A DNA stretch of 42,662 nt from Desulfobulbaceae bacterium. GTDB taxonomy: Bacteria > Desulfobacterota > Desulfobulbia > Desulfobulbales > Desulfocapsaceae. The position numbers and the translations under genes are program-made. Below, piece after piece: positions 28,996-42,662 of the stretch. Below the pieces are notes generated by a model that worked only from the letters and a program-made list of their open reading frames with translations, ran no database searches and was not told the DNA's origin. The DNA is taken from the NCBI GenBank assembly GCA_031256095.1, contig JAIRRG010000052.1, positions 1-42,662 on the forward strand. The letters are read 5' to 3'. Numbering within the stretch: position 1 is the stretch's first letter; every line of letters begins with the position of its first letter.

Positions 28996-31683
28996 TTATC
29001 CTTTTGCCAGCGAATCGCCTTTGACGATATTGACAGTCAGCGGCACCGCCAGTGGCACCGCCTCTTCCATTACCTGTTTGAGCAGCGGTTGAGCGGCGTC
29101 GAGCCAGCGTTCTTCCAGTTCAAAAACCAGCTCGTCATGGATCTGCAAAAGCAAGCGGGCGTCGATACGCCGTGCCGCCAGATCCTGTTCGGCTTTGACC
29201 ATCGCCACCTTGATAATCTCGGCGGCGGTGCCCTGAATCGGCGTGTTGATGGCCGTGCGCTCGGCAAATTCCCTGAGCGATTTATTTTTTGAATTGATGT
29301 CAGGCAGGATACGCCTACGTCCAAACAGCGTGGTAACGAAGCCATCGCGCCGCGCCTGGGCAGCTATCTCTTTCATGAAGCGTTCAACATCAGGATAGTG
29401 CTGGAAATAACGGTCGATGAATTTCTGCGCCTCTTTGCGGCCAATATTCAATTGATTGGCCAGGCCAAAGCTGCTCATGCCGTAGACAATGCCAAAGTTG
29501 ATACTTTTTGCCACCCGTCGCATATCACCCGTGACCATCAGCGGCGCGACGCCGAAAACCTCAATCGCCGTGCGGCTGTGAATATCCTCGCCACGGACAA
29601 ACGCCTGGCATAACGCCGTGTCGCGGCTGTAGTGGGCCAGTACCCGCAAATCGATTTGTGAATAATCGGCGGAGAGAAAAACCATGCCGGGGGCTGGCAC
29701 GAAAGCGCGGCGAATGCGGTTTCCATCCTCGCCGCGAATGGGAATGTTCTGCAGATTAGGATTTGTGCTGGAAAGCCGCCCCGTGGCCGTCACCGCTTGG
29801 TTGAATGATGTATGCACGCGGCCAGTGGCCGGGTTGCGCAGTTGCGCCAGTTTTTCGACATAGGTGGCGAGCAGTTTGGCCACCGTGCGGTATTCGAGGA
29901 TTTTGCCTGGCAGCGGGTGGTAGCTGGCCAGCTTTTCCAGCACCGAAACATCGGTCGAATAGCCGGTTTTCGTCTTCTTGCCATGTGGCAGCTTCAACTC
30001 CTCAAACAGCACTTCCCCCAATTGTTTCGGCGACATGATGTTCAGTTCGCGCCCGGCCAATTGATAGATTTCCTCGCGCAAACGCCGCATCTTGTCTTGA
30101 AATTCACCGGCCAATATCCGCAAATGCGCGGCATCCACCCGAATGCCGCGCATTTCCATGGCGGCCAGGACCGGGACAAGCGGCATTTCGACCTCATCCA
30201 TCAGCCTGGCAATGCCGCGTTCGGCCAGCTTCGGCGCATAGTCCAGATACAGCCGCCAGGCCGCGAAGACATCCTCGCAAGAGTAATCACAGGCCGCGTC
30301 CAAGGCGACATGGGCGAAGGCGTCCGGGCGGGCGCCGTCTTTCGTCACTTCGGCGAAACTGGTCAGGCGAAAGCCCAATTCCTCTGCCAGATCATCGAGC
30401 TTCAGCGACCGTTCGCCGATTTCCAGCAGATGGGCGGCAATCATGGTGTCGAACAGCGGCGGGGCCAGCGGCAGTTGCCAACGGGCGGCCAAGATCGTGT
30501 AATCAAATTTCAGGTTATGGCCAATTTTAACAAGGCCGGAAGATAACAGAGGCGCCAAGGCCTGTCGTACTTTATCTTCTTTTATCTGGCCAGGGAGAAG
30601 CGCCCCATTTTCATCCTTGTGTCCGACAGGTAAATACCAGGCGCGGCCATCCTCGGTGGCAAAAGAGAGGCCAACCAGACGGGCCGACCTCGCCTCCAGC
30701 GAATCGGTTTCCGTGTCAATGGCAATGGCCTTCTCGCCGCTCAGGGCATCGACCATGGCCTGAAGCTGTGCCTCGCTTTGCACTAGGGTGAATTTGGCGG
30801 TATCAACCGGCTTGGCTGTAGACGCCGCGCCGTTCGTTGGCATCTCGGCGAGCAGGCTGTAAAATTCCAGTTTGGTGAAGAGGGCGGCCAGCCGCGCCGC
30901 GTCCTCATCGCGACGGGCATAGGCGGCAAGATCGCGCGGCGCCAAGGCGTCGGTTTTTAAGCGGATCAACTGCCGCGACAAAAACGCCTGTTCGCGGTTT
31001 TCGGCCAGGCGCTCTTTGTTCTTTGAAGCTTTCATCGTGCCAATGGCTTGGTATATACCATCCAATGACCCGTAATCACTAATTAATTTCGCGGCGGTCT
31101 TTGGGCCAATACCTGGCACGCCCGGCACATTGTCGCTGCTGTCGCCCATCAGGGCGAACAGGTCGAGGAGCTTTTCTGGCGGCGCCTGGTATTTGTCCGC
31201 CACCGCCTGGGCGTCGTAGACGGTATTTTTCATCGGCTCCCATACCGTCAGGCCGTCTCCCACCAATTGCAGCAGGTCCTTGTCGCCGGAAATGATTACC
31301 ACCTCGTGTCCGACCTGACGTAAAAAAAACGCCGCTGAAGCCAGCAGGTCGTCGGCTTCGACGCCCTCTTGGGCCAGACAGAGAATGTTTTCCGCTTCAA
31401 CGTATTCGTGGATATGAGGAATCTGACAGGCCAGGTCTTCGGGCATCGTAGGCCGGTTGGCCTTATACTGCGCATACATGTCATGGCGGAAAACCTTGCC
31501 GCGGCTGTCAAAAGCAACGGCGAGATAGCGCGGCTCTTTTTCCCGCAACAGGCGGCGGACGATACTGATGAAGCCAAACACGGCCTGGGTCGGCATCCCG
31601 GCCTTGGTGGTGAGCGGCGCCAGTGCGTAAAAGGCCCGGTAGATATAGGCGCTGCCGTCGATGAGATAGACCGTTTCCTTCAT
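28996..31683 (-). CDS. polA: DNA polymerase I
   Basis: It has a 5-prime nuclease N-terminus (LIDGSAYIYRAFYA), a 3-5 exonuclease region (AIDTETDSL) and Pol motifs DYSQIDLRVLAH, RRVAKSINFGIVYG and QIHDELVFE. I prefer the ATG at 31681..31683 (MKETVYLIDG). Confidence 0.95.
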   Translation of the reverse strand: MKETVYLIDGSAYIYRAFYALAPLTTKAGMPTQAVFGFISIVRRLLREKEPRYLAVAFDSRGKVFRHDMYAQYKANRPTMPEDLACQIPHIHEYVEAENILCLAQEGVEADDLLASAAFFLRQVGHEVVIISGDKDLLQLVGDGLTVWEPMKNTVYDAQAVADKYQAPPEKLLDLFALMGDSSDNVPGVPGIGPKTAAKLISDYGSLDGIYQAIGTMKASKNKERLAENREQAFLSRQLIRLKTDALAPRDLAAYARRDEDAARLAALFTKLEFYSLLAEMPTNGAASTAKPVDTAKFTLVQSEAQLQAMVDALSGEKAIAIDTETDSLEARSARLVGLSFATEDGRAWYLPVGHKDENGALLPGQIKEDKVRQALAPLLSSGLVKIGHNLKFDYTILAARWQLPLAPPLFDTMIAAHLLEIGERSLKLDDLAEELGFRLTSFAEVTKDGARPDAFAHVALDAACDYSCEDVFAAWRLYLDYAPKLAERGIARLMDEVEMPLVPVLAAMEMRGIRVDAAHLRILAGEFQDKMRRLREEIYQLAGRELNIMSPKQLGEVLFEELKLPHGKKTKTGYSTDVSVLEKLASYHPLPGKILEYRTVAKLLATYVEKLAQLRNPATGRVHTSFNQAVTATGRLSSTNPNLQNIPIRGEDGNRIRRAFVPAPGMVFLSADYSQIDLRVLAHYSRDTALCQAFVRGEDIHSRTAIEVFGVAPLMVTGDMRRVAKSINFGIVYGMSSFGLANQLNIGRKEAQKFIDRYFQHYPDVERFMKEIAAQARRDGFVTTLFGRRRILPDINSKNKSLREFAERTAINTPIQGTAAEIIKVAMVKAEQDLAARRIDARLLLQIHDELVFELEERWLDAAQPLLKQVMEEAVPLAVPLTVNIVKGDSLAKG

Positions 31684-32215
31684 GCTTTTGCACCTAACAA
31701 TGGAGAACTTGTTTAGCCGCGAGGCCCGAACCACTCGCCAGTTCTAGCCCCTTGCCGCCCACCGCGCTTTAAGGAAAAGAATGCGCTGCATGACACAAGC
31801 GGGAATAAAGCATCCTCCCGCCGCGCAACTGTGAGGAAATGGCTGAAAACTCTGGATGATAGGTATGGCATGGCCGTGCTGCATTGGAAATGAGGGGCGC
31901 TCATTGTAGGATGGTGAAGCTTGTAAACTCCAATTTCCCACCCCCTTTCAGATTAACAATCTGTTGAACCCTCACATCTTCGTCACAAGTATCATCAAAG
32001 CAAGCAGCCTCTATGAGAAATTCCGCCAAAGCCACCCCATAGCCTGCCCAATTCCCATGCAAACGCCTTCCAGTGACAAATCAAGCCGCTCAACCGGTAT
32101 AATTCGCGATGGTGGTTAAGAATAATTTGCAAATGGTTGCGAAATGATGAGTGACAATCTATCTTTTGGCTTGCATCGGAAATCACCAAAAACTCAAGGG
32201 GGAATGCCAAATATC

Positions 32216-32557
32216 CTACCCTAGGTGTATGCCTTTATTAAACAATCCGCAACCGCCTGTACCAACGAAAATGATGATAAACGGCGTTATGCTTCCCAGA
32301 AGTATTCCCAATGCAACAGACCTATTTTTGTTCCACATTACAAAGCCAATAACTATTCCAACTATTATAGAGGGTATACTAACCATAAACGCTGGGATAA
32401 CCCAATAACTTAAATCTGTGCCAGCAGTGAAAAGCAATGTAATAGCGGTCAGAACGACAAGCGTTATCAAATACGAGACATAAAACAGCCAATTTTTGAA
32501 TGGATTCCCTTTTTCTGGCTGGCCGCCTGATTTATTGATATTATTGTTCTCCTCCAT
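32216..32557 (-). CDS. Small membrane protein (3-4 TM), last gene of the AT-rich operon
   Basis: It is 113 aa with a polar N-terminus (MEENNNINKSGGQPEKG) followed by hydrophobic segments, and GTGGCG near the C-terminus. Its ATG overlaps the stop of the Lgt-like gene by 17 nt. Confidence 0.5.
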   Translation of the reverse strand: MEENNNINKSGGQPEKGNPFKNWLFYVSYLITLVVLTAITLLFTAGTDLSYWVIPAFMVSIPSIIVGIVIGFVMWNKNRSVALGILLGSITPFIIIFVGTGGCGLFNKGIHLG

Positions 32558-33260
32558 TTTCTCTCCTCCTCAATAAAACCGTCGTTATATATATTATCCC
32601 AAGTCCGCATATGATTTGATAAATTGTCATCCCAGCCCATATGACAGGATTTTCCCGTATGAACTCTATTAAAAATCTGAATATGAAATACGCCAAAACA
32701 TACAGCTTAAAAAGTAGCCCGGCTGTTTTAACTCTGCCTTTATAATAGAGCAAAAGAATAAAGGAGACTACATGGAAGCCGACTTCAAACAATTGTGTCG
32801 GTAATCTGGGGAATCCGTCCCCAAAATCAAAACCCCACGTTGCGATCTTGCCGTAACAGCAGCCGTTAAAAAAGCAGCCAAGCCGCCCGATAGCCATACC
32901 AAGCGCTATCGAAGGGGCAATGACATTGCCAAGTTTCAATCGGATTCTGAAGATTCGCTTAACTGCGACAACGCCGAACATACCGCCGACAAGACCACCG
33001 ACAATCGATTTGTCGTACAGTATTTCTTCCCAGCCGCGTCCTTCAAATAGCAAGGGGATTTTCGCACCGATGACGCCGAAGATGAGCGCGGAAAACACAA
33101 TTTTAATTGCGCCTTCACTGGCCTGACCTTTGCGGCTTAAATCCGTGAAATAATATATAAGCCCGGCGACTATTCCCAACACTACGAAAAATGTATACGC
33201 GGGGATCCCAAGTATAAACGGCGCCGCTTTTCCGTAGAGCCGTTCATGAACGTCCAACAT
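32541..33260 (-). CDS. Prolipoprotein diacylglyceryl transferase (Lgt, PF01790) family paralog
   Basis: It is polytopic. The motifs GGLVGGMFG, IGRLGCFFNGCCYGK and LPTQLFE match the Lgt family signature regions. It is shorter (239 aa) than typical housekeeping Lgt. Confidence 0.7.
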   Translation of the reverse strand: MLDVHERLYGKAAPFILGIPAYTFFVVLGIVAGLIYYFTDLSRKGQASEGAIKIVFSALIFGVIGAKIPLLFEGRGWEEILYDKSIVGGLVGGMFGVVAVKRIFRIRLKLGNVIAPSIALGMAIGRLGCFFNGCCYGKIATWGFDFGDGFPRLPTQLFEVGFHVVSFILLLYYKGRVKTAGLLFKLYVLAYFIFRFLIEFIRENPVIWAGMTIYQIICGLGIIYITTVLLRRRENGGEQ

Positions 33261-33723
33261 TATCCTTTACCTTTTTAGCCAATCGGCCAACTCGGCAGCA
33301 GTTACCGTCGGTCATACAGTTATATAATTTAAGGACGGAACAGAATCCGCACGCCGCGGACGTTTGGAGTATGGTGAACAAGCCTGTCATTCCCCATGCC
33401 ACAGTCGGATTCGCGAAGTATAACAGGAAAAGACAAATAACCGAGAAGATTGTCCCGGCTAAATGAGAAGCGTAAATTCCCTTTTCATCAACGATTATTT
33501 TTTCACCGGGACTAATTCGATCAACTGTGTATTTATAAAGCAGAATAAGCGGAGCCTTATCCACTTTTAATAGAGCGGAAAAAAGCATAATCAGGAAAAC
33601 CACGCCGACCAAGTATTTTATCTGGAAAATTATACTGAGCCATAAAAGCCCGGCTATCATTATCCTGCAAAACGCAAAGCTGCCCTTTGAAATCGTTTTC
33701 AGCCTAAACTGCGCCTGTGCCAT
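33244..33723 (-). CDS. Polytopic membrane protein with Cys-rich C-terminus (possibly DUF4395-like)
   Basis: It has 4 hydrophobic segments. The C-terminal AACGFCSVLKLYNCMTDGNCC gives CxxC-x7-C-x5-CC. I prefer the ATG at 33721..33723, which overlaps the upstream gene by 20 nt. The family call rests on remembered DUF4395 features only. Confidence 0.45.
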   Translation of the reverse strand: MAQAQFRLKTISKGSFAFCRIMIAGLLWLSIIFQIKYLVGVVFLIMLFSALLKVDKAPLILLYKYTVDRISPGEKIIVDEKGIYASHLAGTIFSVICLFLLYFANPTVAWGMTGLFTILQTSAACGFCSVLKLYNCMTDGNCCRVGRLAKKVKDNVGRS

Positions 33724-34300
33724 CCGCTCCACCTCTTAGTTTCGGGAAAAACATCCCCGTATTTTTTATATAGTTTTCATACTCCGCAAATTCTTCCCGC
33801 AATAACGCTTCTTCTTGTTTTGCCCGATAATACATAAACGGAATAAATATAAATGCGGTCAGCGCGGCACTTAACCAATTCCTGTAAACAAGGCTTCCTC
33901 CAAGCAACATGAGCATTATCGAAGCATACAATGGATGTCGTACAAGTTTGTAAACGCCATGGTTAATAAGGGTGTGATCTTCATATACCTTAATGTGGTT
34001 AGCCCAATTCCCCTTGAGCTGCAACCTGCCTAATATATTAGTAACCGCGCCTGTGACGACCATTGCCGTTCCCAAAAATACTATTAGGATATGCGCATTA
34101 TGATCAAAATTTCCCAAACGGAATCGCAACACAAGATAGTAAACAAAGTAGAAGCCTATCATACTTCCTGTTGCTACTATTACACGTTTACTTTTCTTAA
34201 CAGTATCCTTTTCCCCATATAATATAAAATCAATAAAAATCGCCAGAAAAACCGATACAACAGATAACGAAATCACAATGGGAATGATATTATTAATCAT
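33704..34300 (-). CDS. ICMT/PEMT-type integral-membrane methyltransferase
   Basis: It has HTLINHGVYKLVRHPLYASIMLMLLG followed by AKQEEALLREEFAEYENY. This is the signature of the isoprenylcysteine carboxyl / phospholipid methyltransferase superfamily (PF04140/PF04191). It starts 1 nt after the radical SAM gene stop. Confidence 0.7.
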   Translation of the reverse strand: MINNIIPIVISLSVVSVFLAIFIDFILYGEKDTVKKSKRVIVATGSMIGFYFVYYLVLRFRLGNFDHNAHILIVFLGTAMVVTGAVTNILGRLQLKGNWANHIKVYEDHTLINHGVYKLVRHPLYASIMLMLLGGSLVYRNWLSAALTAFIFIPFMYYRAKQEEALLREEFAEYENYIKNTGMFFPKLRGGADGTGAV

Positions 34301-34301
34301 T

Positions 34302-35663
34302 CTATGCGCTCCTGTGTATCATATTATACGCGGAAAACGGTATACGTCTTAGGTCGGTCGTAATGATATGCACACATTCTTTTTGCATTGACTTCATATC
34401 AAAATTATACTTATCGACAAAGGAGCTGACGCTTATTCTAAAAGTATTTTCATCGACAAATTTCATCTTTTCTTCCTTCGATTTTAAAATGAAATTCCCA
34501 GGCGAATACTTTTTTATATCGTTTATAAAGTCACAACAGGCGCAAACATTGAATATCTTGCTGCCATCATTAAAATTTTCTAAGGCGTCCTCAAGTGTAA
34601 ACATGAAAGTGTTTCCGATAAATCTTTTAAATTCGCTTAAATCTCTATCGCGGATAACTGGAATAAACCCGTCCTTATCTTTAAACAAATATGTAATAGC
34701 GACCCGCTCAACGTTACATGGAAGCGGTATAAAATCAGAGGTTTTTATCATTTTGTTTGTTTGTTTCTCGATCCTGTTTAAGACCCCAGAAAGGGTGACC
34801 CTGTCTGGGGGAGCGTCAATATTCCCATAATAGCTTACCGGTTGATAATTCACTCCACGCACACAGGGCTGGTTCATTCCATAAACCAAAATTTCACCGC
34901 ATAGATGATCGCTTACGCCGCCTTCTATCGTTGCCACTAATGTTGTTGGCACGTTATATTTGTTCAAATTTTTTATCGCCTTTTTTTTGATACTCACAAG
35001 GTTTTTTCCACGTAATCTTGAATAGACTTTATTCTCAAGCCCATCAAATTGTAAGTAAATTTCAAAGCCCCCACGGAATTTTGCAATTTCACGAACAAAA
35101 TTTTCATCTTCCGCAATCCTAACCCCGTTGGTATTTAACATAACATATTTGAAACCCTTGTGTTTTGCCATTCCAATTATATCTATAATATATTCATGCA
35201 GCGTCGGTTCGCCACCACTGATTTGTAAAATCTCCGCTCTATTATTTTCGGCGGACATATAAAAATCCATCATTTTTTCAACTAGATGAAGCGGCAAGTC
35301 TGCATCGTCAACCGCACGAGCATAGCATATCGGGCAAGATAAATTACACCTTCTCGTTATCTCAATAAGGCCAATACAAGTGTGTTGGTCATGATTTTCG
35401 CACAATCCGCAATCATATGGGCAGCCGCGGCTAATAATTGTCTGTGTGCCGCTTTTTGTTCCCTGTTTGTCATATTTATATTTTTGAAGATGATATTGAA
35501 AATCTTCTTCTAAAATCTCAAAATGTTCCCCGCATGTCCGACAGTTTTTTAAGATAAATACGCCTTTTTCGTTATACACGATTTTGCCGTCAATTAAACC
35601 GCCGCACTTTGAACATATTGTCCTGGTAAAGGTTTGGTAAATGTAGTCCCTGTTCATTCGCAT
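34302..35663 (-). CDS. Radical SAM enzyme with N-terminal zinc ribbon (MJ0619 / tetraether-lipid-synthase-like architecture)
   Basis: The CX3CX2C cluster is RRCNLSCPICYA and the SAM-binding motif is QISGGEPTL. The N-terminus has CSKCGG...x17...CRTCGEHF (a 4-Cys ribbon). There are extra Cys in CPYDCGLCENHDQHTC and CACCDF. The RBS GGAGG is present. Confidence 0.8.
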   Translation of the reverse strand: MRMNRDYIYQTFTRTICSKCGGLIDGKIVYNEKGVFILKNCRTCGEHFEILEEDFQYHLQKYKYDKQGTKSGTQTIISRGCPYDCGLCENHDQHTCIGLIEITRRCNLSCPICYARAVDDADLPLHLVEKMMDFYMSAENNRAEILQISGGEPTLHEYIIDIIGMAKHKGFKYVMLNTNGVRIAEDENFVREIAKFRGGFEIYLQFDGLENKVYSRLRGKNLVSIKKKAIKNLNKYNVPTTLVATIEGGVSDHLCGEILVYGMNQPCVRGVNYQPVSYYGNIDAPPDRVTLSGVLNRIEKQTNKMIKTSDFIPLPCNVERVAITYLFKDKDGFIPVIRDRDLSEFKRFIGNTFMFTLEDALENFNDGSKIFNVCACCDFINDIKKYSPGNFILKSKEEKMKFVDENTFRISVSSFVDKYNFDMKSMQKECVHIITTDLRRIPFSAYNMIHRSA

Positions 35664-35682
35664 ACCTCCGTGAACCGTCCCT

Positions 35683-35710
35683 AATTTAGCTCATTTCAAA
35701 CGACAGGCAA
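35683..35710 (-). promoter_or_regulatory. Candidate promoter of the AT-rich operon
   Basis: On the minus strand: TTGCCT (35705..35710), a 16-nt spacer, then TAAATT (35683..35688), about 20 nt upstream of the RBS. The palindrome AGGCAAATGTGCCT (35705..35718) overlaps the -35 element. Confidence 0.35.
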
Positions 35711-35788: not shown

Positions 35789-37693
35789 CTAGACTGGCAG
35801 ATGGGTGCCGATCTCCACCACCCGTGAGCTGGGGATATTGAAAAAGGTCGAGGCGTTCCAGGCGTTGTTGCTTAAAAAAATGAACAGGGCCCGCCGCCAG
35901 GGCCGCATTACCGGCTCCTCCGCCGAGGCCAGAATGGTTTCGTGGCCCAGGTAGAAGGTGCTATCGTAGAGCGGCAGATGCATGGCCGTCTTGCGGGAGC
36001 ACTCGGAAATTTCCTCCATGTCGGGCCGCTGCATATAACCGTAGGTGACAGTCATACGGTAGAGGCCAACATCTTTATCTGACATATTGAGACGAACGCG
36101 CTCCTCCTTAGGAACGTAAGGAACCTCGACGGTGGCAATCGTCAAGATTATGATGGTCTCCGGCACCGTATGGATCAGAGCGATGGAACGGGCCAAAGGC
36201 ATTGGCGTCAGGTTCTGATTCATGGTCATGAACACGCCGATGCCGGGGCTACGATTAGTGTTCACTTGCCGCAAGCTGGTGAGAAATGCAGTCAGCGGCA
36301 TACTCATCTGAACGAAACGCTCTCGCAGATAGGCGCGGCCTTTCTTCCAGGTGGTCATGACGGTGATCAGGATTACGGCAGCCAACATCGGCAACCAGCC
36401 GCCATCGATAACTTTAATCAGATTGACGCTAAGAAAAGGCAGATCGAACAGTAGGAAAAGCGCCAGCAGCGGCGCGGCTTTCCACAGCGGCCAGTTCCAG
36501 GCGAGATAAACGACAGAAAAATAGAGTATACTGGTTATGGTCATGGCCCCGATAACCGCCAAACCATAAGCGGCGGCCAAGGAACTTGAATTCTGAAAGA
36601 TCAGGGCCAGGCCGATGCAGGCCACCATCAGCAGGGCATTGATGGTCGGCAAATAAATCTGCCCCTTGGCGGTGGGAGAGGTATGGACAAGCCGCATACG
36701 GGGGAGAAAGCCTAAGTGTACGGCTTGCTGGGTAAGGGAATAGACCCCGCTGATCACGGCCTGTGAGGCAATGACCGTGGCCATCGTGGCGAGCAGCAGC
36801 ATGGGAATAAGCAAAGGCGGCGGCAGCGCATGGTAAAAGGGATTATACGCCGCTTCCGAGTTTTTCAGGATGACCGCGCCCTGCCCCAGATAATTGAGCA
36901 GGAGCGCTGGATAAGCGACAAACAGCCAGCCCCTTTTGATGGGGACGCGGCTGAAATGGCCGAGATCGACGTACAGGGATTCGCCGCCGGTAACGCACAG
37001 CACCACGGCGCCGAGGATGATTATGCCATGCAGGTGATTGGCCTTAAAATAGGCAAGGGCGTAATACGGGTTGATGGCATAAGCCACAGCCGGGTTAGAA
37101 ATGATATTGTACAGACCGCTGGCGGCCAGGGCGGCAAACCACAGCAACATGACGGGGCCGAAAATCCCCCCAATGCGGGCGGTGCCATATTTTTGCAGTA
37201 AAAAAAGCAGGACCAGGATGCCGCAGGTAATGGGGACGACAAGCTTCGTCGCTGCTGACGAAACGATGCTTAATCCTTCGACGGCGGACAGTACCGATAT
37301 AGTTGGGGTGATGATACCGTCGCTGTATACCATCGCCGCGCTGCACAGGGCCAGATAAGGCACTATTTTGAAAAAACGGGGCGAAGACATTTTTTTCCTC
37401 ATGGCGTTGTGGATTAGCGCCAGCAGGGCAAAGGTGCCGCCCTCGCCGTGGTTGTCGGCCTTGGTGACAAATGACACGTATTTGATGGTAATGACCACCG
37501 TCAGACTCCAAAAGATCAGCGACAACACGCCCATCACATTGTCATGGCTGACAGCTATGGCATGAGGGCCGTGGAAGCATTCTTTCAGGGTGTAAAGCGG
37601 GCTGGTGCCGATGTCGCCATAGACCACGCCCAAAGCTGTTATCATCAACGCCGCCATGGACTTGCGCGGACTATTTTGGCATTCGTTTGCCAT
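35789..37693 (-). CDS. kup: KUP/HAK/KT family potassium transporter
   Basis: It has the signature LGVVYGDIGTSPLY, 12 TM-like segments and a soluble C-terminal domain. I prefer the ATG at 37691..37693 (MANECQ...) over the track start at 37759. Confidence 0.93.
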   Translation of the reverse strand: MANECQNSPRKSMAALMITALGVVYGDIGTSPLYTLKECFHGPHAIAVSHDNVMGVLSLIFWSLTVVITIKYVSFVTKADNHGEGGTFALLALIHNAMRKKMSSPRFFKIVPYLALCSAAMVYSDGIITPTISVLSAVEGLSIVSSAATKLVVPITCGILVLLFLLQKYGTARIGGIFGPVMLLWFAALAASGLYNIISNPAVAYAINPYYALAYFKANHLHGIIILGAVVLCVTGGESLYVDLGHFSRVPIKRGWLFVAYPALLLNYLGQGAVILKNSEAAYNPFYHALPPPLLIPMLLLATMATVIASQAVISGVYSLTQQAVHLGFLPRMRLVHTSPTAKGQIYLPTINALLMVACIGLALIFQNSSSLAAAYGLAVIGAMTITSILYFSVVYLAWNWPLWKAAPLLALFLLFDLPFLSVNLIKVIDGGWLPMLAAVILITVMTTWKKGRAYLRERFVQMSMPLTAFLTSLRQVNTNRSPGIGVFMTMNQNLTPMPLARSIALIHTVPETIIILTIATVEVPYVPKEERVRLNMSDKDVGLYRMTVTYGYMQRPDMEEISECSRKTAMHLPLYDSTFYLGHETILASAEEPVMRPWRRALFIFLSNNAWNASTFFNIPSSRVVEIGTHLPV

Positions 37694-38438
37694 GAACTGT
37701 CTCCGGGTTTCTTTATGTTGCTCTGCCTCCGCCTGCTGGCGGCGCCATCCTAATCGCAAACGGAAAATTCAGCGAATAATTCCTGGCCCCGCAAATAAAC
37801 GCCGCGCCCGACTCGGCTTCCCCCCGTTCCAACTGAAAAAGCCGATACGGTCATTGTCATAAACGAGGTTCAGCCACGGCAACGTGAATAAATCTTTACG
37901 AAAACGACATGGTCAATCCCGACGGCCAAAGGGTGGATTCATAGGTCTTGCACATGCAAAAAAACTGAGCGCCAAAGATTCTATGATTCCGTTTCAATGC
38001 CTTAGCTGGAAAAAACGGACTAAAAGGCATAACGGAGTTGACAAAATCGAGATTGCTGATGGTAATGGGAGGTAGGAAATTTGCGGATCGGCCCAAGCCG
38101 CGCCAACCGGCCAAGCTATCAAATTTATGTCGCGGCGGAAAATTTTGTCATTTGATTGAAAATGATGTTATGGATTCAAGACAGTGTTATAACGGAGGGA
38201 ATATGGCTCGGAACTTCCTGGTTTGTATGATCTTTTCTTAAAGTCATTATGCAGCCAGAGAGGCTCTATTTACCGCCCGGCCTGGGCGGCGTCGCGCCTC
38301 ACTAACCAAGGGGAATTGCCATGGCCTTTTACAGACTTTCAGCCAATGAAACGTGGTTTGAGTTTAGTATTCAGACTGGGGAAGCGGGCGCGTTGTCGTC
38401 CGGCGGTTCGGAGAGCGCGGAGGCGAAAGGGTGAGGTC

Positions 38439-41414
38439 ATGAGCGAGCAAGCGAAGAGTCAAACGGTGAAAAATCCTCGGGGGTATCTTAAATCTGGCGA
38501 TTGCGTCATCCTCTATCCGGCATTGACCTCTCCGGCGCTTGTGCCGGTGGGCGACAAGGGCGAACTGAACATTATTCTCGCCGGCAACGAGGATGTAAAA
38601 AGCTACTACGACAACGCGGAGAAGAAGGAGTTTTTGCGCTATTGCCATTCCCATCTGCGCCTGCCGCCCTGGCGCGATCTCTACGGCGAACCGCACCCAA
38701 AAGGGTCTGTGCCGAAAGGCCAGATTTTCAACACAGGCCAGGCCCACTACAATGACTTGTATGATCTCTCCGGTTACCAAAACATGATCTATAAGAGAGA
38801 TCAGCATGATGGCCCTATAAAGGCGTATGACGCGGGGCAATGTGACGGATGGTTTTTGAGAGAATTGAAGCCCGGCAAGGAAGAGGATGGCACGGTATCG
38901 ATTGATGACGGGAAAACGCCTTTCGGCATTCTTGGAAGCTCGGCGGTCGCTATGCTCCTTGGCGCTCCCAAGGATGAAAATAAATATAAATATCTTTTTC
39001 ATCTGCGTTTCTCCGGCATTCAAAACAGAGACGAGGGGATGTACGAGGTGATATGGTTCGCCTGTTGGCGTGATGAAAAAAACCCGGAGAAACCATGGCA
39101 TTATATTCCCAAGGAAGATATCGTGTTGCCGAAATTCACACAAGAAATTGTTCAGGGAGGCGAAAAAGCCAATAACAAACAGAAGCTGCTTCAGCCGGCC
39201 AAGCCGCCTGAGGCAAGCGATGAATCACTGCCGCCGAAGGAAAAGCCGCGTTGTGAAAATAGTTACGCCTTGTTTGACCTGGGGGTACCTTGCGTAACCC
39301 CGGAGCAAAAAAGCTTCGCCAGAAACCAAAACCAACCGCCTGAAAAACAACCTGACTCATCGGTTCCCCCGCTTTCTTGCCTATGGCAAAGCGGCCACCT
39401 GTTTACGCCCAGGCATCCCGTCTATTTTTCCGACAAGCCCTTGCTCGACATCGGCGTTATCGCCGACCCGCATATCTCGTCGAGGCAGAGCCTGTACAAA
39501 ACGGTTGGGGCGAGAGTGATACCCGGCGTCGATAGCTTTGATCAGTCGCAAATTGTTTCAGACGGCAAGGCAAAAATTGTCGCGCCGGAGGCAAGCGACT
39601 CGCCGCTGATTGGGCTGATGGCCCACGAGAATCTGCAAACGGCGCGCGAGTTGTTTGAAAAGATTGGCGCCGCAAGCGATGTCATTGTTTTTGCCGGTGA
39701 TATATACGACCATATCCGCAACCTCAATCCCAAAGCGTATAAAAATCCCGAAGGGAAAACCAGCGTTTTGTGGAACTCTCTCAGGTATCGCAAAAACTAT
39801 GAAAACGACCGGCAAACCTATCCGCGTTTCATTGACGCCATGATGGCCCTGGAGCTTATCTATCAAACCTATGCCGGCGGCAAAGCGGTTATTTACCTGG
39901 CCGGCAACCATGAAGGCTATGAGCGGCCTTACGGCATTTCGCCAAGGGTGCCAAGCGCGACGGTTGACATGGTGAAAGCCAATGAGGGCATCCCGCTTGA
40001 CCATAATTTGACCTTTTACGAGGCGGTGCTGCTCTATGGCGACGCCTATGGCGACTATTATATGGGGAACTATGCCAAAGAGAATTACGACTGGCTTCAT
40101 ACGACCCTGTCGCCATGGAAGGATATATTTATTTCCTATGGCGAAAAACAAAATATAGTCTGCCTGGATTGGGGCAGGGATGAAAAATATGTTGATAACT
40201 TTGTCAGCGGCGGCGATACCTTGCCCCGGGCCAGTCAGGCTATCGACGACAAACAACTGAAGCTGCTGCAACGCGCTCCGGCAAAAGGCGGCCAGAACGG
40301 CGTCGTCAATATTTTATGCAGCCACTTTACCTTTGCCGCTTATACTCCAGGCAAATCCCTTTTTAATGACGCCTTTGCCAGCAATGAGCCGGTTCAGGCG
40401 AAAACAACGACAACATCGGCGACCAAGGAAGGCTACAGCGTTGATGTCGGGACATTCGGCGAGCGGAAAAGCGAGGTATGGTCAATCGCCTGTGAAAAAT
40501 TCACATATATCATTTCCGGCCATACGCACCGGGCGGGCATCTATGAACTCAGCGCCGAAAAGAGCGAGGCATATACTCCCGACTACGGGACGGGACAAAC
40601 GATACAATCCAACAAGATAACGCCGATGTCCGCCATGAAGGATTTGCGCGACGCGATTTTTATCGGCGGCGGGAAAGAAACGCTGGCGCTGGTCAGCGGC
40701 TCCTGCGGCACCTACAACAAGCGCAACATGTTTGGCGAGTTTGCCGGGCACGGCTTCGATGTGCCGCAGGGCATGGTGCTGGAGCCGCGGGGAAAATGGG
40801 TGAAAATCGTTTTGAGCAAGGCGCCCAAGCCGCGCCTGGCCGTGGTTATGGATTATCTGTGGTTTGACGGCAAAGAGCTTTTTGAGCCTGTTCAAGGCAT
40901 CTGGGCTGAATTAACCGCATCCTATCAATTCAATCCCAATCAAACATTACGGAATCTATTCCGCTATCAGGCGGCCGATGGGCGATTCGCTCCCTCCATT
41001 CCTGTTGATTATATGAAGCTGCACGCGGTGACAAATGACGGGACGCATCGGGGATGTCTGCTCATGAAGGTGGAAGACGCCACTGCTAAAACCGTGCAAT
41101 TAGAGGTAACCGGCGCCGATGTTGCGAAGTTTGTTCAATTCGCTGAGTCGAAGGTACCAGATAAAAATTCTCTCTACTACTTTCTAAGCATCCATTTTGG
41201 CGGCAAGAGTTGTTCAGCAAAACACATAGCCGATTACTACGACCTCGCTTCTCCGTGGTGTATGCCGGTAACGTTGAGAAAGCTCAATCCGCGTTGGGGA
41301 AACTATGCCATCCATCGCGGCGGCGGTTTCGGCAATATCACGGGAGAATTGCCTGATTTTGAAAAACTTAAAAAGATTCCTGAATACGCACTAAAACCAA
41401 GCGCACAAAAATGA
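38439..41414 (+). CDS. Large (991 aa) multidomain calcineurin-like metallophosphoesterase of unknown function
   Basis: All five Metallophos (PF00149) motifs occur in order: GVIADPH, FAGDIYDH, LAGNHE, LCSH and SGHTH. The ATG at 38439 follows GGTGAGG. The track ORF from 38223 adds an Arg-rich extension with no RBS. The flanking N- and C-terminal regions are unassignable by eye. Confidence 0.75.
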   Translation: MSEQAKSQTVKNPRGYLKSGDCVILYPALTSPALVPVGDKGELNIILAGNEDVKSYYDNAEKKEFLRYCHSHLRLPPWRDLYGEPHPKGSVPKGQIFNTGQAHYNDLYDLSGYQNMIYKRDQHDGPIKAYDAGQCDGWFLRELKPGKEEDGTVSIDDGKTPFGILGSSAVAMLLGAPKDENKYKYLFHLRFSGIQNRDEGMYEVIWFACWRDEKNPEKPWHYIPKEDIVLPKFTQEIVQGGEKANNKQKLLQPAKPPEASDESLPPKEKPRCENSYALFDLGVPCVTPEQKSFARNQNQPPEKQPDSSVPPLSCLWQSGHLFTPRHPVYFSDKPLLDIGVIADPHISSRQSLYKTVGARVIPGVDSFDQSQIVSDGKAKIVAPEASDSPLIGLMAHENLQTARELFEKIGAASDVIVFAGDIYDHIRNLNPKAYKNPEGKTSVLWNSLRYRKNYENDRQTYPRFIDAMMALELIYQTYAGGKAVIYLAGNHEGYERPYGISPRVPSATVDMVKANEGIPLDHNLTFYEAVLLYGDAYGDYYMGNYAKENYDWLHTTLSPWKDIFISYGEKQNIVCLDWGRDEKYVDNFVSGGDTLPRASQAIDDKQLKLLQRAPAKGGQNGVVNILCSHFTFAAYTPGKSLFNDAFASNEPVQAKTTTTSATKEGYSVDVGTFGERKSEVWSIACEKFTYIISGHTHRAGIYELSAEKSEAYTPDYGTGQTIQSNKITPMSAMKDLRDAIFIGGGKETLALVSGSCGTYNKRNMFGEFAGHGFDVPQGMVLEPRGKWVKIVLSKAPKPRLAVVMDYLWFDGKELFEPVQGIWAELTASYQFNPNQTLRNLFRYQAADGRFAPSIPVDYMKLHAVTNDGTHRGCLLMKVEDATAKTVQLEVTGADVAKFVQFAESKVPDKNSLYYFLSIHFGGKSCSAKHIADYYDLASPWCMPVTLRKLNPRWGNYAIHRGGGFGNITGELPDFEKLKKIPEYALKPSAQK

Positions 41415-41424
41415 GGGTAACGCC

Positions 41425-42662
41425 ATGTCAGAAAAATATACCCTCAAAACTTTTCTCAAGCGTTATCGTTATCACCTGATTGTCCTGCTACTCTTACTTG
41501 GAGGATATTCCATGTATCCAATACAAAATTCTGTCATGTATTCTCCACAGGAGATAAGCGCCAACCCGACGCTGCTGAATCATGGCACCCTTACCGGCAA
41601 GGGATACAGCACGCTTCTGAGTATCGCCAACTGTACCATCACCGGCGCCAGATTGAAAAATATCAGGCTTGATGACCTGAAAGTGGAAAACGTCACCTTT
41701 AAGAATTGCGTATTTGAGAAAGTTGAATCGCTGGGCGCGGTGTTTACGAATGTTATCTTTGATCACTGTACCTTTATCAGCGCCCAATTTGATAAGGGAA
41801 AATTGGATAAGGTCTTGTTTCACGGCGGCAAAATGTATTCCGTCGGCGATCCTGAACGTGTGAATGATAATGGTTATTTCTATGGCACATTTTTTGACAA
41901 TGTCATTTTTGATGACATTGAACTGAATAATGTCAACCTGTGGCCTGTCGGCGAATCTGTTTTTTTTAGAAATATCAGCAAAGTATCTAATCGTGGAGGC
42001 GTAATATCGACTGGCGATAGCATATATGCGCGTATTGATAATTCACATATCAAAGATACCGACTTTGTTACCGCCGGAGATGGCTCATCCATTTACGCGA
42101 CTAACAGCACGCTTTTTCGATCAGGTCTTAGGGGCGGGAAATTCGTATATATTGAAAATTGCGATATGCGACGGACAGGATTGAGTAGTGATGAAGTTCT
42201 GGTCGTGAAAAATTGTGTAGTAGGCGGCGCAGCAAAGGGATCGGAAAACAGCAAATTTTATATTGTTAATTCCAAAACACCAGTAGCACCAGATATAACA
42301 TCAGATGATCCTACAGATCGCGCCCGTGTCGCTTTCGACGGAAAAGATTTGACCGAAGTATATATATTGAATCCATCAGGGCCATTCCGCGCCGGGATAT
42401 ACCGAGGCAGGATAACAGCCATAAATACTGAGCTTGTTGATTTTTATATTGGAGAGGTTCCTGTGGACATTGATCTGAAAGACGTAACCATCCGGGGCGG
42501 CGAATGGAAGGACTTGCGCATGAAAGGCGGCGGCCGCTGGGAGAATGTCAAAATTTATCCGCAAATTACGCTGGAAAATGCCGTGCTGGGCGACATCGAG
42601 GCTTATAACCTGACCTTTCCCGAAGGCAATCCCTGGGTCGGCAACGCCAAATCCAACTTGAA
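41425..42662 (+). CDS. Membrane-anchored pentapeptide-repeat / beta-helix protein (3-prime partial, runs off the window)
   Basis: It is not in the ORF track. I translated it codon by codon from ATG 41425 (RBS GAGGG, 10 nt after the upstream stop) to 42660 and found no stop. The N-terminal TM is YHLIVLLLLLGGY. About 14 consecutive 5-residue repeats follow (NCTIT GARLK NIRLD DLKVE NVTFK NCVFE ... NVIFD HCTFI SAQFD). Confidence 0.75.
   Translation, partial: MSEKYTLKTFLKRYRYHLIVLLLLLGGYSMYPIQNSVMYSPQEISANPTLLNHGTLTGKGYSTLLSIANCTITGARLKNIRLDDLKVENVTFKNCVFEKVESLGAVFTNVIFDHCTFISAQFDKGKLDKVLFHGGKMYSVGDPERVNDNGYFYGTFFDNVIFDDIELNNVNLWPVGESVFFRNISKVSNRGGVISTGDSIYARIDNSHIKDTDFVTAGDGSSIYATNSTLFRSGLRGGKFVYIENCDMRRTGLSSDEVLVVKNCVVGGAAKGSENSKFYIVNSKTPVAPDITSDDPTDRARVAFDGKDLTEVYILNPSGPFRAGIYRGRITAINTELVDFYIGEVPVDIDLKDVTIRGGEWKDLRMKGGGRWENVKIYPQITLENAVLGDIEAYNLTFPEGNPWVGNAKSNL

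Follow-up and report, generated by a model that had tools for sequence, protein, structure and literature searches.

A Tes/GDGT-MAS-fold radical SAM enzyme of a distinct clade is encoded in a mobile gene cassette with an Lgt paralogue

We analysed a 42,662-nucleotide stretch of DNA from a Desulfobulbaceae bacterium (GenBank assembly GCA_031256095.1, contig JAIRRG010000052.1, positions 1 to 42,662; hereafter the window) and focused on a gene for an enzyme of the radical S-adenosylmethionine (SAM) type on its minus strand at 34302..35663. The results showed that this enzyme shares its fold with Tes, or GDGT-MAS, the tetraether synthase of archaea, but is not a Tes orthologue; it belongs to a third, distinct and uncharacterised clade of the Tes/GDGT-MAS superfamily. 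Its gene is part of an undescribed mobile cassette, after which we call this group the cassette clade, together with genes for an ICMT-like methyltransferase, a DUF4395 protein, a paralogue of the lipoprotein diacylglyceryl transferase Lgt and a small Cys-bearing membrane protein. Below we establish the fold and the clade of the enzyme, the rewiring of its ligands, the gene linkage, the motif of the small protein and the horizontal acquisition of the cassette. For function, we lean towards the view that the enzyme would be a cytoplasmic multi-cluster protein serving as the radical part of a mobile lipid-protein modification cassette, and not a general synthase of tetraether or membrane-spanning lipids.

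To our knowledge, no enzyme other than Tes/GDGT-MAS has been shown to couple two unactivated sp3 carbons of lipid tails. What the many bacterial homologues of Tes do was raised as a question in both discovery papers, and the question still stood in a 2026 review, which listed these homologues as detected only bioinformatically. At stake for geochemistry is whether they make the branched glycerol dialkyl glycerol tetraether (brGDGT) lipids that are used as climate proxies. The clade described here is a large and widely transferred branch, present in at least 373 species genomes, that should be excluded from tetraether synthase counts in genome surveys.

The enzyme has the full-length fold and the N-terminal metal sites of GDGT-MAS

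The radical SAM gene is an intact open reading frame (ORF) of 453 amino acids when counted from the first ATG. Its true start is likely the second ATG, at 35657, because GGAGG sits 7 nt upstream of it; the product then has 451 amino acids, in agreement with the gene caller (P0001). The protein combines a rubredoxin-type ribbon, an N-terminal [4Fe-4S] motif, a CX3CX2C core and a rewired C-terminal domain. Pfam assigned residues 12-48 to Zn_ribbon_HMPTM (PF23545; 30.3 bits, cut-off 27) and residues 100-252 to Radical_SAM (59.1 bits). The ribbon cysteines are C17-x2-C20 and C41-x2-C44, followed by the auxiliary cluster motif C81-PYD-C85-GL-C88-ENH91 and the radical SAM cluster motif C106-NLS-C110-PI-C113. 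GGEPTL, TNG, LQFDG and LRG are also present, and the C-terminal domain carries C374-A-C376-C377-DF.

We then compared these positions among 81 orthologues. C17, C20, C41, C81, C85, C88, H91, C96, C106, C110, C113, C316 and C430 were 99-100% conserved, indicating that the motifs are not due to chance. An earlier note, made from this DNA alone, had listed a 4-Cys ribbon, a Cys-rich stretch, CNLSCPIC, GGEPTL, TNG/LQFDG/LRG and CACCDF, and we found all of them. The description of the ribbon as 4-Cys is correct for the window protein but does not extend to the whole clade: the fourth ligand, at position 44, is His in about 90% of the cassette clade, as is H36 of GDGT-MAS, and Cys occurs there only in the window enzyme and its closest relatives. 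In GDGT-MAS, the reported sites are a rubredoxin-type site (C9, C12, C33 and H36), an N-terminal cluster (C73, C77, C80 and a His), the radical SAM cluster and, towards the C-terminus, a further cluster whose ligand Met439 is labile (PMC9433317). C81, C85, C88 and H91 of the window enzyme line up with the N-terminal cluster ligands.

Comparison with solved structures gave the same placement. A phmmer search aligned residues 13-452 of the enzyme to residues 25-498 of the GDGT-MAS chain (7TOL, MJ0619) with an E value of 7e-64. An AlphaFold2 model built from 25 homologues (predicted local distance difference test (pLDDT) 79.5, predicted template modelling score (pTM) 0.84) was searched with Foldseek and matched 7TOM with an E value of 3e-36 and a template modelling (TM) score of 0.79. 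GDGT-MAS was the sole solved structure matched over the full length, both by sequence and by fold. MoaA, SkfB, viperin, SuiB and the anaerobic sulfatase maturase anSME matched the core only (TM score ~0.35-0.42, with the next hits after GDGT-MAS at ~0.39), and the NCBIfam models of SPASM maturases likewise matched only residues 99-250 (~30-62 bits). A SPASM/twitch C-terminal domain (CX9-15GX4C...CX2CX5CX3C) was not found in the protein, whose C-terminal domain matches that of GDGT-MAS instead. All the marks of the Tes/GDGT-MAS superfamily (InterPro IPR034474) were present, namely the ribbon, the N-terminal cluster motif, the CX3CX2C core and the full-length fold. The MJ0619/Tes-type domain layout that had been proposed for this bacterial protein was therefore upheld, with the host confirmed as a Desulfobulbaceae metagenome-assembled genome (MAG). 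Better matches to SPASM or RiPP (ribosomally synthesised and post-translationally modified peptide) maturases, to cofactor-biosynthesis radical SAM enzymes or to anSME, which would have spoken against that layout, were not found, since GDGT-MAS alone matches over the full length and the other enzymes match the core only.

The name of the Pfam ribbon domain derives from HMPTM, and some database homologues of the enzyme are still labelled 7,8-dihydro-6-hydroxymethylpterin dimethyltransferase. In line with the old HMPTM annotation of MJ0619, both would suit a radical SAM methylase of class D that acts on a pterin, another small molecule or a lipid carbon. We consider such an activity very improbable. 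Methanopterin synthesis would be unexpected in Clostridia, in the candidate phyla radiation (CPR) and in Desulfobulbaceae, and the operon already contains a conventional methyltransferase. Moreover, the pterin methylase activity of MJ0619 was not reproduced by Lloyd et al., who described a hydrophobic lipid tunnel in MJ0619 as well as tetraether and macrocycle synthase activity (PMC9433317). The identification of the window enzyme as a pterin methylase was rejected because of this irreproducibility.

The cassette enzymes form a separate clade with altered C-terminal cluster ligands

To place the enzyme within the superfamily, we used curated models, a tree and ligand columns. The NCBIfam Tes model (NF045702) scored 273.8 bits against a cut-off of 450 and covered residues 13-318 only. 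The best-scoring curated model was that of TrsS (NF045646), which matched over the full length with 322.9 bits against a cut-off of 490. The control genomes of M. jannaschii, S. acidocaldarius and M. acetivorans passed the Tes cut-off. A maximum-likelihood tree of 120 sequences was then built with IQ-TREE from the window enzyme, 17 cassette orthologues, 7 TrsS proteins, MJ0619, 3 other Desulfobulbaceae paralogues and 91 representatives of an exhaustive search. The MAS/Tes clade (SH-aLRT 100) and the TrsS clade (95) lay on one side of the deepest split, and the cassette clade with the window enzyme (96-97) lay on the other.

The ligand columns were read in native MAS numbering for 21 cassette-clade proteins and 99 other members of the superfamily. 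Column 439 is S or T in 19/21 cassette proteins and M or H in 77/99 others; column 455 is E or D in 21/21 versus C in 89/99; and column 470 is S in 21/21 versus C in 88/99. The window enzyme itself has S in place of M439, E in place of C455, S in place of C470 and I in place of Y459. [quoted passage not shown] The cassette clade invariantly keeps C316 and C430, the latter in the column of MAS C456, and it has gained Cys at 374/376, with a strict CxC in 57/80 members. In the AlphaFold2 model, the loops bearing C316, C374, C376 and C430 have low pLDDT. Since the N-terminal sites are conserved but the cluster site of Tes chemistry is replaced, we count the C-terminal site as rewired, and it may have become an all-Cys site.

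Taken together, the enzyme lacks three features of Tes equivalogs (a score above 450 bits, the C-terminal ligand set with Tyr459, and a place in the MJ0619 clade). It also falls short of the 490-bit TrsS cut-off and lies outside the TrsS clade. Membership of the Tes clade, which the earlier note had suggested from the domain layout, is thus not supported, in view of the score (273.8 versus 450 bits), the tree and the loss of the C-terminal ligands and Tyr459.

True TrsS proteins (546-682 bits), the paralogues native to the host's kin, were detected in 10/11 tested Desulfobulbaceae relatives of the host, none of which reaches the Tes cut-off, and TrsS was not found in the window's own MAG, which is 87% complete. 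TrsS is a radical SAM (seleno)protein; no in-frame TGA occurs in the window gene. In three relatives (L099, L100 and L103, from genomes G018, G030 and G024), the TrsS above the cut-off is a fusion of ~890-900 amino acids; the one fusion that was scanned (L099) ends in a C-terminal AMP-binding domain (PF00501).

A sister clade of the cassette enzymes (P0248; L109:3598-6452) has another gene layout, with an Lgt-family gene and two small membrane proteins of 100 and 63 amino acids ahead of the radical SAM gene. The Lgt of this locus keeps GRVGC and lacks the GCCYG part of the variant motif of the cassette Lgt described below. As judged from gene neighbourhoods, linkage to Lgt tracks the radical SAM branch without canonical C-terminal ligands, because the sister clade is also Lgt-linked and TrsS is often fused to an AMP-binding domain instead.

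The cassette is conserved and widely distributed

In the window, the radical SAM gene heads a run of five genes on the minus strand that are tightly packed or overlap, and it is followed by those for the ICMT-like methyltransferase, the DUF4395 protein, the Lgt paralogue and the small membrane protein. The identical five-gene order was found in three Clostridia genomes with unrelated flanks. A scan with one genome per species identified at least 373 genomes with a relative, and linkage was counted in the best 80 loci. The four-gene core was collinear in 71/71 loci with enough downstream sequence, and the remaining 9/80 end at contig ends. Carriers are mostly Clostridia and include the cultured Clostridium bowmanii, C. 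lacusfryxellense, Youngiibacter fragilis and Alkalibaculum sporogenes. Erysipelotrichaceae and other Bacilli, Coriobacteriia, Fusobacterium, Cloacimonadales, Ignavibacteriales, Desulfobacterales and several CPR phyla also carry it, as do MAGs of Woesearchaeota and Nanoarchaeota (DPANN). No NCBIfam model scored any of the five window proteins above its cut-off. Searches of the literature on TrsS, on DUF4395 and on Tes with Lgt turned up no account of the cassette; TrsS appeared only as a table entry in a selenoprotein review.

Each of three Woesearchaeota/Nanoarchaeota MAG loci (L083, L076 and L086, from genomes G061-G063) comes with 2-3 Lgt-family (PF01790) genes, one or two scoring 210-246 bits and the cassette copy 122-139 bits; these may be mis-binned bacterial contigs. 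A 2025 paper states that no archaeal Lgt homologues are known (PMC12462473). On a Coprobacillaceae chromosome (L002:103-4511), genes for IS66 TnpB and DDE transposase are found a few kb away from the cassette, which hints at its way of moving.

CPR and DPANN organisms mostly lack lipid synthesis. That the cassette occurs in them argues against a role of the enzyme as a true bacterial membrane-spanning lipid synthase, a Tes equivalent that couples the tails of bulk lipids of the brGDGT or diabolic-acid type, and we regard this role as unlikely. It would fit the full-length GDGT-MAS fold and the membrane-lipid-type neighbour genes, and a role as brGDGT enzymes has been proposed for Tes homologues of bacteria (PMC8941075). 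However, the enzyme lies outside the Tes clade and below its cut-off, without C455, C470, Met439 and Tyr459, and a bulk-lipid synthase would not need such constant partners as an Lgt paralogue and a Cys-bearing mini-protein. In addition, Clostridia use Mss to make membrane-spanning lipids; BLAST did not recognise Mss as a homologue of Tes, and these producers yielded no Tes homologues (PMC13159169). The same study found none in the screened producers of diabolic or iso-diabolic acid, save 3/14 acidobacterial iso-diabolic-acid producers. The connection to membrane-spanning lipids drawn in the earlier note was consequently not supported: the enzyme is outside the Tes clade, its ligands are lost, and the published clostridial producers use Mss. 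The window enzyme was not accepted as Mss either, as the published Mss is not detectable as a Tes homologue (PMC13159169).

The partner genes include members of the ICMT/PEMT and Lgt families

The second gene (33704..34300, minus strand) starts 1 nt past the stop of the radical SAM gene and encodes an integral-membrane methyltransferase of the ICMT/PEMT family with 198 amino acids (Pfam ICMT 49 bits, PEMT 37.8 bits). It has the conserved RHPxY and EE motifs, and its best match in the PDB is the M. acetivorans ICMT (4A2N, E 9e-15). The NCBIfam model of isoprenylcysteine methyltransferase gave 83 bits against a cut-off of 160, and LmtA and MddA matched more weakly.

The third gene (33244..33732, minus strand) encodes a DUF4395 membrane protein of ~155-162 amino acids (Pfam 34.7 bits). 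C22, H90, C131, C139, C145 and C146 are invariant, so five of these residues are Cys. The Cys-rich tail is predicted to be cytoplasmic because it is followed by a K/R-rich end of ~12 residues, averaging 4.6 K/R. A Foldseek search with a model of this protein (pLDDT 83) found no relative in the PDB (best E 0.87), and a DsbB- or VKOR-like thiol oxidoreductase fold was therefore not supported.

The fourth gene (32541..33260, minus strand) encodes an accessory Lgt-family paralogue of 239 amino acids with 7 predicted transmembrane helices (Pfam LGT 113.6 bits). In an alignment to E. coli Lgt (5AZB), residues equivalent to R143, R239, E243 and R246 are retained; these four were placed in the catalytic centre by the paper on the E. 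coli structure. Three Cys replace N146, E151 and L152 (GRLGCFFNGCCYG; GRxGCxxxGCCYG), and Val replaces H103. These cysteines, C129, C134 and C135, are invariant in 67/67 orthologues. The head group of phosphatidylglycerol is bound by E151 in E. coli, where mutants of E151 and of H103 are both inactive. The cassette copy scored 67 bits with TIGR00544 (cut-off 118.9) and lacks the hallmarks of canonical Lgt, that is, G142-RLGNFINGELW-G154 with N146 and E151, and H103 of HGGL. A canonical Lgt is present elsewhere in the host (243 bits, versus 64 bits for the cassette copy).

The small membrane protein has a lipobox-like C-terminal end

The last gene (32216..32557, minus strand) encodes a protein of 113 amino acids with three predicted transmembrane helices; the lipobox-like FVGTGG-C103 stands at the end of the last helix, and a tail of 10 residues comes after it. 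A counterpart with a lipobox-like F-G-[GAS]-C end is usually encoded downstream of the four-gene core. These proteins are otherwise poorly conserved in sequence, yet 61/64 have a Cys 4-15 residues from the C-terminus. Position -2 before the Cys is Gly in 53/61. Position -1 is G, A, S or T in 51/64, compared with 31/270 background hydrophobic ORFs of the same loci (p = 2e-26). The Cys is preceded by an uncharged stretch with a median of 19 residues, which is bounded by K/R in 59/61, and the number of K/R is 3.0 before the last helix and 0.36 after it. By sequence, this end has the n-region/h-region/lipobox layout of a lipoprotein signal peptide. The Cys is predicted to be on the outer face, the same side as the Lgt active site, which is likewise predicted to be extracytoplasmic (PMC4728403). 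We regard the small protein as a candidate private substrate of the cassette.

A Cys-bearing small protein and a Cys-rich DUF4395 tail encoded beside a multi-cluster radical SAM enzyme could also suggest a RiPP-like peptide maturase, in which the enzyme would modify the small protein or the tail, for example by a thioether or another cross-link, and the lipid-type neighbours would act on the same peptide. The apparent change of the C-terminal cluster site to an all-Cys set and the weak SPASM-maturase matches on the core point in the same direction. We nevertheless assign this possibility only a small probability. The enzyme has no SPASM/twitch domain, and its C-terminal domain matches the lipid-binding domain of GDGT-MAS over the full length. 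Rather than a leader-core peptide, the small protein is a polytopic membrane protein whose tail varies, and neither a protease nor an exporter is present.

The cassette was acquired as a unit by cross-phylum transfer

The five genes form a low-GC island at 31900..35700, with 33-45% GC against 55-60% in the surroundings. It is flanked by the host-type genes polA (28996-31734) and kup (35789-37759). GC at third codon positions (GC3) is 0.39-0.48 in the cassette genes, compared with 0.68-0.70 in those for SHMT, PolA and Kup. The window PolA shares 79-89% identity with proteins from Desulfobulbaceae MAGs, and in a genome of the same genus Kup and PolA are 75% and 85% identical to the window proteins. 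No orthologue was found in 60 relatives from the genus, family or order (0/60; best match 39% identical). All five genes have their nearest relatives in one and the same set of Firmicutes-type loci (Filifactoraceae, Eubacteriales and others), with 57-74% identity for the four larger proteins, and in the tree the window enzyme nests among these relatives with a support of 99. Given these shared nearest relatives, the absence from the host's kin and the low GC, we conclude that the cassette came as a unit into this bacterium of the sulfate-reducer type, by cross-phylum transfer from a Firmicutes-type source. The earlier note had not noticed this origin.

No flanking direct repeats, tRNA-type targets or mobility genes were found at the island edges, and promoter and terminator matches were at chance level only. 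A clean empty pre-insertion site was not found in close relatives, among which synteny is unconserved even within the genus. Between the last cassette gene and polA lies a 481-nt non-coding spacer (31735-32215) of host-like GC, which contained no convincing terminator or repeat. A second segment of lower GC (42-46%) occupies the right end of the window (41000-42662). The same-genus polA orthologue (L113; G002:C32:35431-38121) has one in-frame TAA, possibly a pseudogene or a sequencing error.

It is quite unlikely, in our view, that the cassette is an inert passenger without function in this host, be it a recent insert that is unexpressed or decaying, or a chimera of the assembly. The foreign composition, the 0/60 orthologue count and the chance-level promoter and terminator signals would agree with such a state. 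However, the five ORFs are intact and tightly packed or overlapping, and all clade-invariant residues are kept. A chimera is improbable because host-type genes on both flanks, with 75% (kup) and 85% (polA) identity to the same-genus genome, would demand two joins.

A proposed role in lipid-protein modification

The families of the conserved neighbours suggest that the radical SAM enzyme most likely uses radical chemistry to remodel a lipid that is either attached to the small protein or handled together with it. The earlier note had proposed a lipid or lipidated substrate, which fits the ICMT-like protein, the Lgt paralogue and the Cys-bearing small protein. In the scheme we propose, the Lgt paralogue would transfer a glycerolipid moiety from a membrane phospholipid to the Cys thiol of the small protein, at the outer end of the last helix. 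This step would parallel lipoprotein lipidation, with donor recognition probably altered because E151, N146 and H103 are replaced. The Tes-like enzyme would then bind the lipid tails from the cytoplasmic side and remove a hydrogen from a chain carbon that is not activated. With the help of the C-terminal cluster, a C-C (or C-S) bond could be newly made, by analogy with GDGT-MAS, which binds the tails of phospholipids and joins sp3 carbons by way of a cluster-sulfur intermediate (PMC9433317). As a result, the acyl chains of the anchor might be cyclised, cross-linked or tied to a second lipid. Next, the ICMT-like enzyme would methylate a carboxylate, phosphate or thiol of the product, and the cytoplasmic Cys-rich tail of DUF4395 might dock the radical SAM enzyme or provide it with electrons or a thiol.

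More tentatively, the cassette could be a protein-lipid modification pathway new to science and common to anaerobic bacteria, CPR and DPANN, in which the dedicated Lgt paralogue thioether-links a glycerolipid to the Cys of the mini-protein and the radical SAM enzyme bonds the acyl chains, through C-C or C-S, into a macrocyclic or membrane-spanning lipid-protein anchor. Tes-type chemistry would then serve a lipoprotein rather than a bulk lipid, with the ICMT-like enzyme and DUF4395 completing and assisting the reaction. We consider this fuller version possible but rather doubtful.

Several points weigh against a role in lipid-protein modification. Each functional step is deduced from homology and gene linkage. 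Tes-type chemistry may not apply, because the C-terminal ligands of the Tes mechanism are absent from the cassette clade, and the strict CxC is found in just 57/80 of its members. The Lgt paralogue may not be a diacylglyceryl transferase at all, because H103 and E151, which are essential in E. coli Lgt, are absent. Furthermore, the cassette has no protease that would expose a C-terminal Cys for ICMT-type methylation, and predictions place both the Cys of the small protein and the active site of Lgt outside the cytoplasm, whereas the radical SAM enzyme is cytoplasmic (PMC4728403).

If the proposal is true, lipoproteins would be modified in a new way, and Tes-type radical chemistry would have a further use. 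The pathway would also bear on the cell envelopes of CPR and DPANN organisms, which rely on scavenged lipids. Being small and self-contained and carried by cultured clostridia, the cassette is directly testable.

Comparison with known systems

The closest characterised enzyme is GDGT-MAS/Tes (7TOL, 7TOM, NF045702), which shares with the cassette enzyme the four-domain architecture and full-length fold (30% identity, TM score 0.79), the rubredoxin-type site, the [4Fe-4S]N motif CPYDCGLCxNH and the CX3CX2C core. The cassette enzyme differs in its separate clade, its altered C-terminal ligands and the new Cys at 374/376, and the operon with an Lgt paralogue, an ICMT-like gene and DUF4395 belongs to it and not to Tes. 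TrsS (NF045646) has the same superfamily and architecture, but it keeps the canonical M439/C455/C470 set, groups with Tes in the tree and is often fused to an AMP-binding domain rather than linked to Lgt. Mss (T. maritima Tmari_0825, T. ethanolicus) likewise belongs to the radical SAM enzymes and joins lipid tails in anaerobic bacteria, Clostridia among them, and its predicted catalytic architecture is similar to that of Tes according to the published report. By the published descriptions, it is set apart from the cassette enzyme by the lack of a zinc-ribbon/HMPTM N-terminus and of any published link to an Lgt paralogue.

Two protein lipidation systems resemble the cassette as a whole. In the Lgt-Lsp-Lnt pathway (E. 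coli Lgt, 5AZB), Lgt has the R143, R239, E243 and R246 whose equivalents are kept in the cassette copy, and in the candidate acceptor of the cassette the Cys is likewise preceded by a K/R n-region, an h-region of ~19 residues and a box of small residues. The cassette differs from this pathway in the three Cys within the Lgt signature motif and the loss of H103, in the acceptor motif at the C-terminal end of a mini-protein with three transmembrane helices instead of an N-terminal signal peptide, in the absence of Lsp and Lnt, and in its coupling to a radical SAM enzyme. CaaX processing in eukaryotes and archaea (prenylation, tail proteolysis and ICMT methylation; Ma-ICMT 4A2N) similarly brings together a near-C-terminal Cys, a lipid transferase and an ICMT-family methyltransferase. 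However, the cassette transferase is of the Lgt type and not a prenyltransferase, the tail after the Cys is variable with 4-15 residues, and there is no CaaX protease. ICMT-family members elsewhere also methylate phosphate (LmtA) or thiols (MddA).

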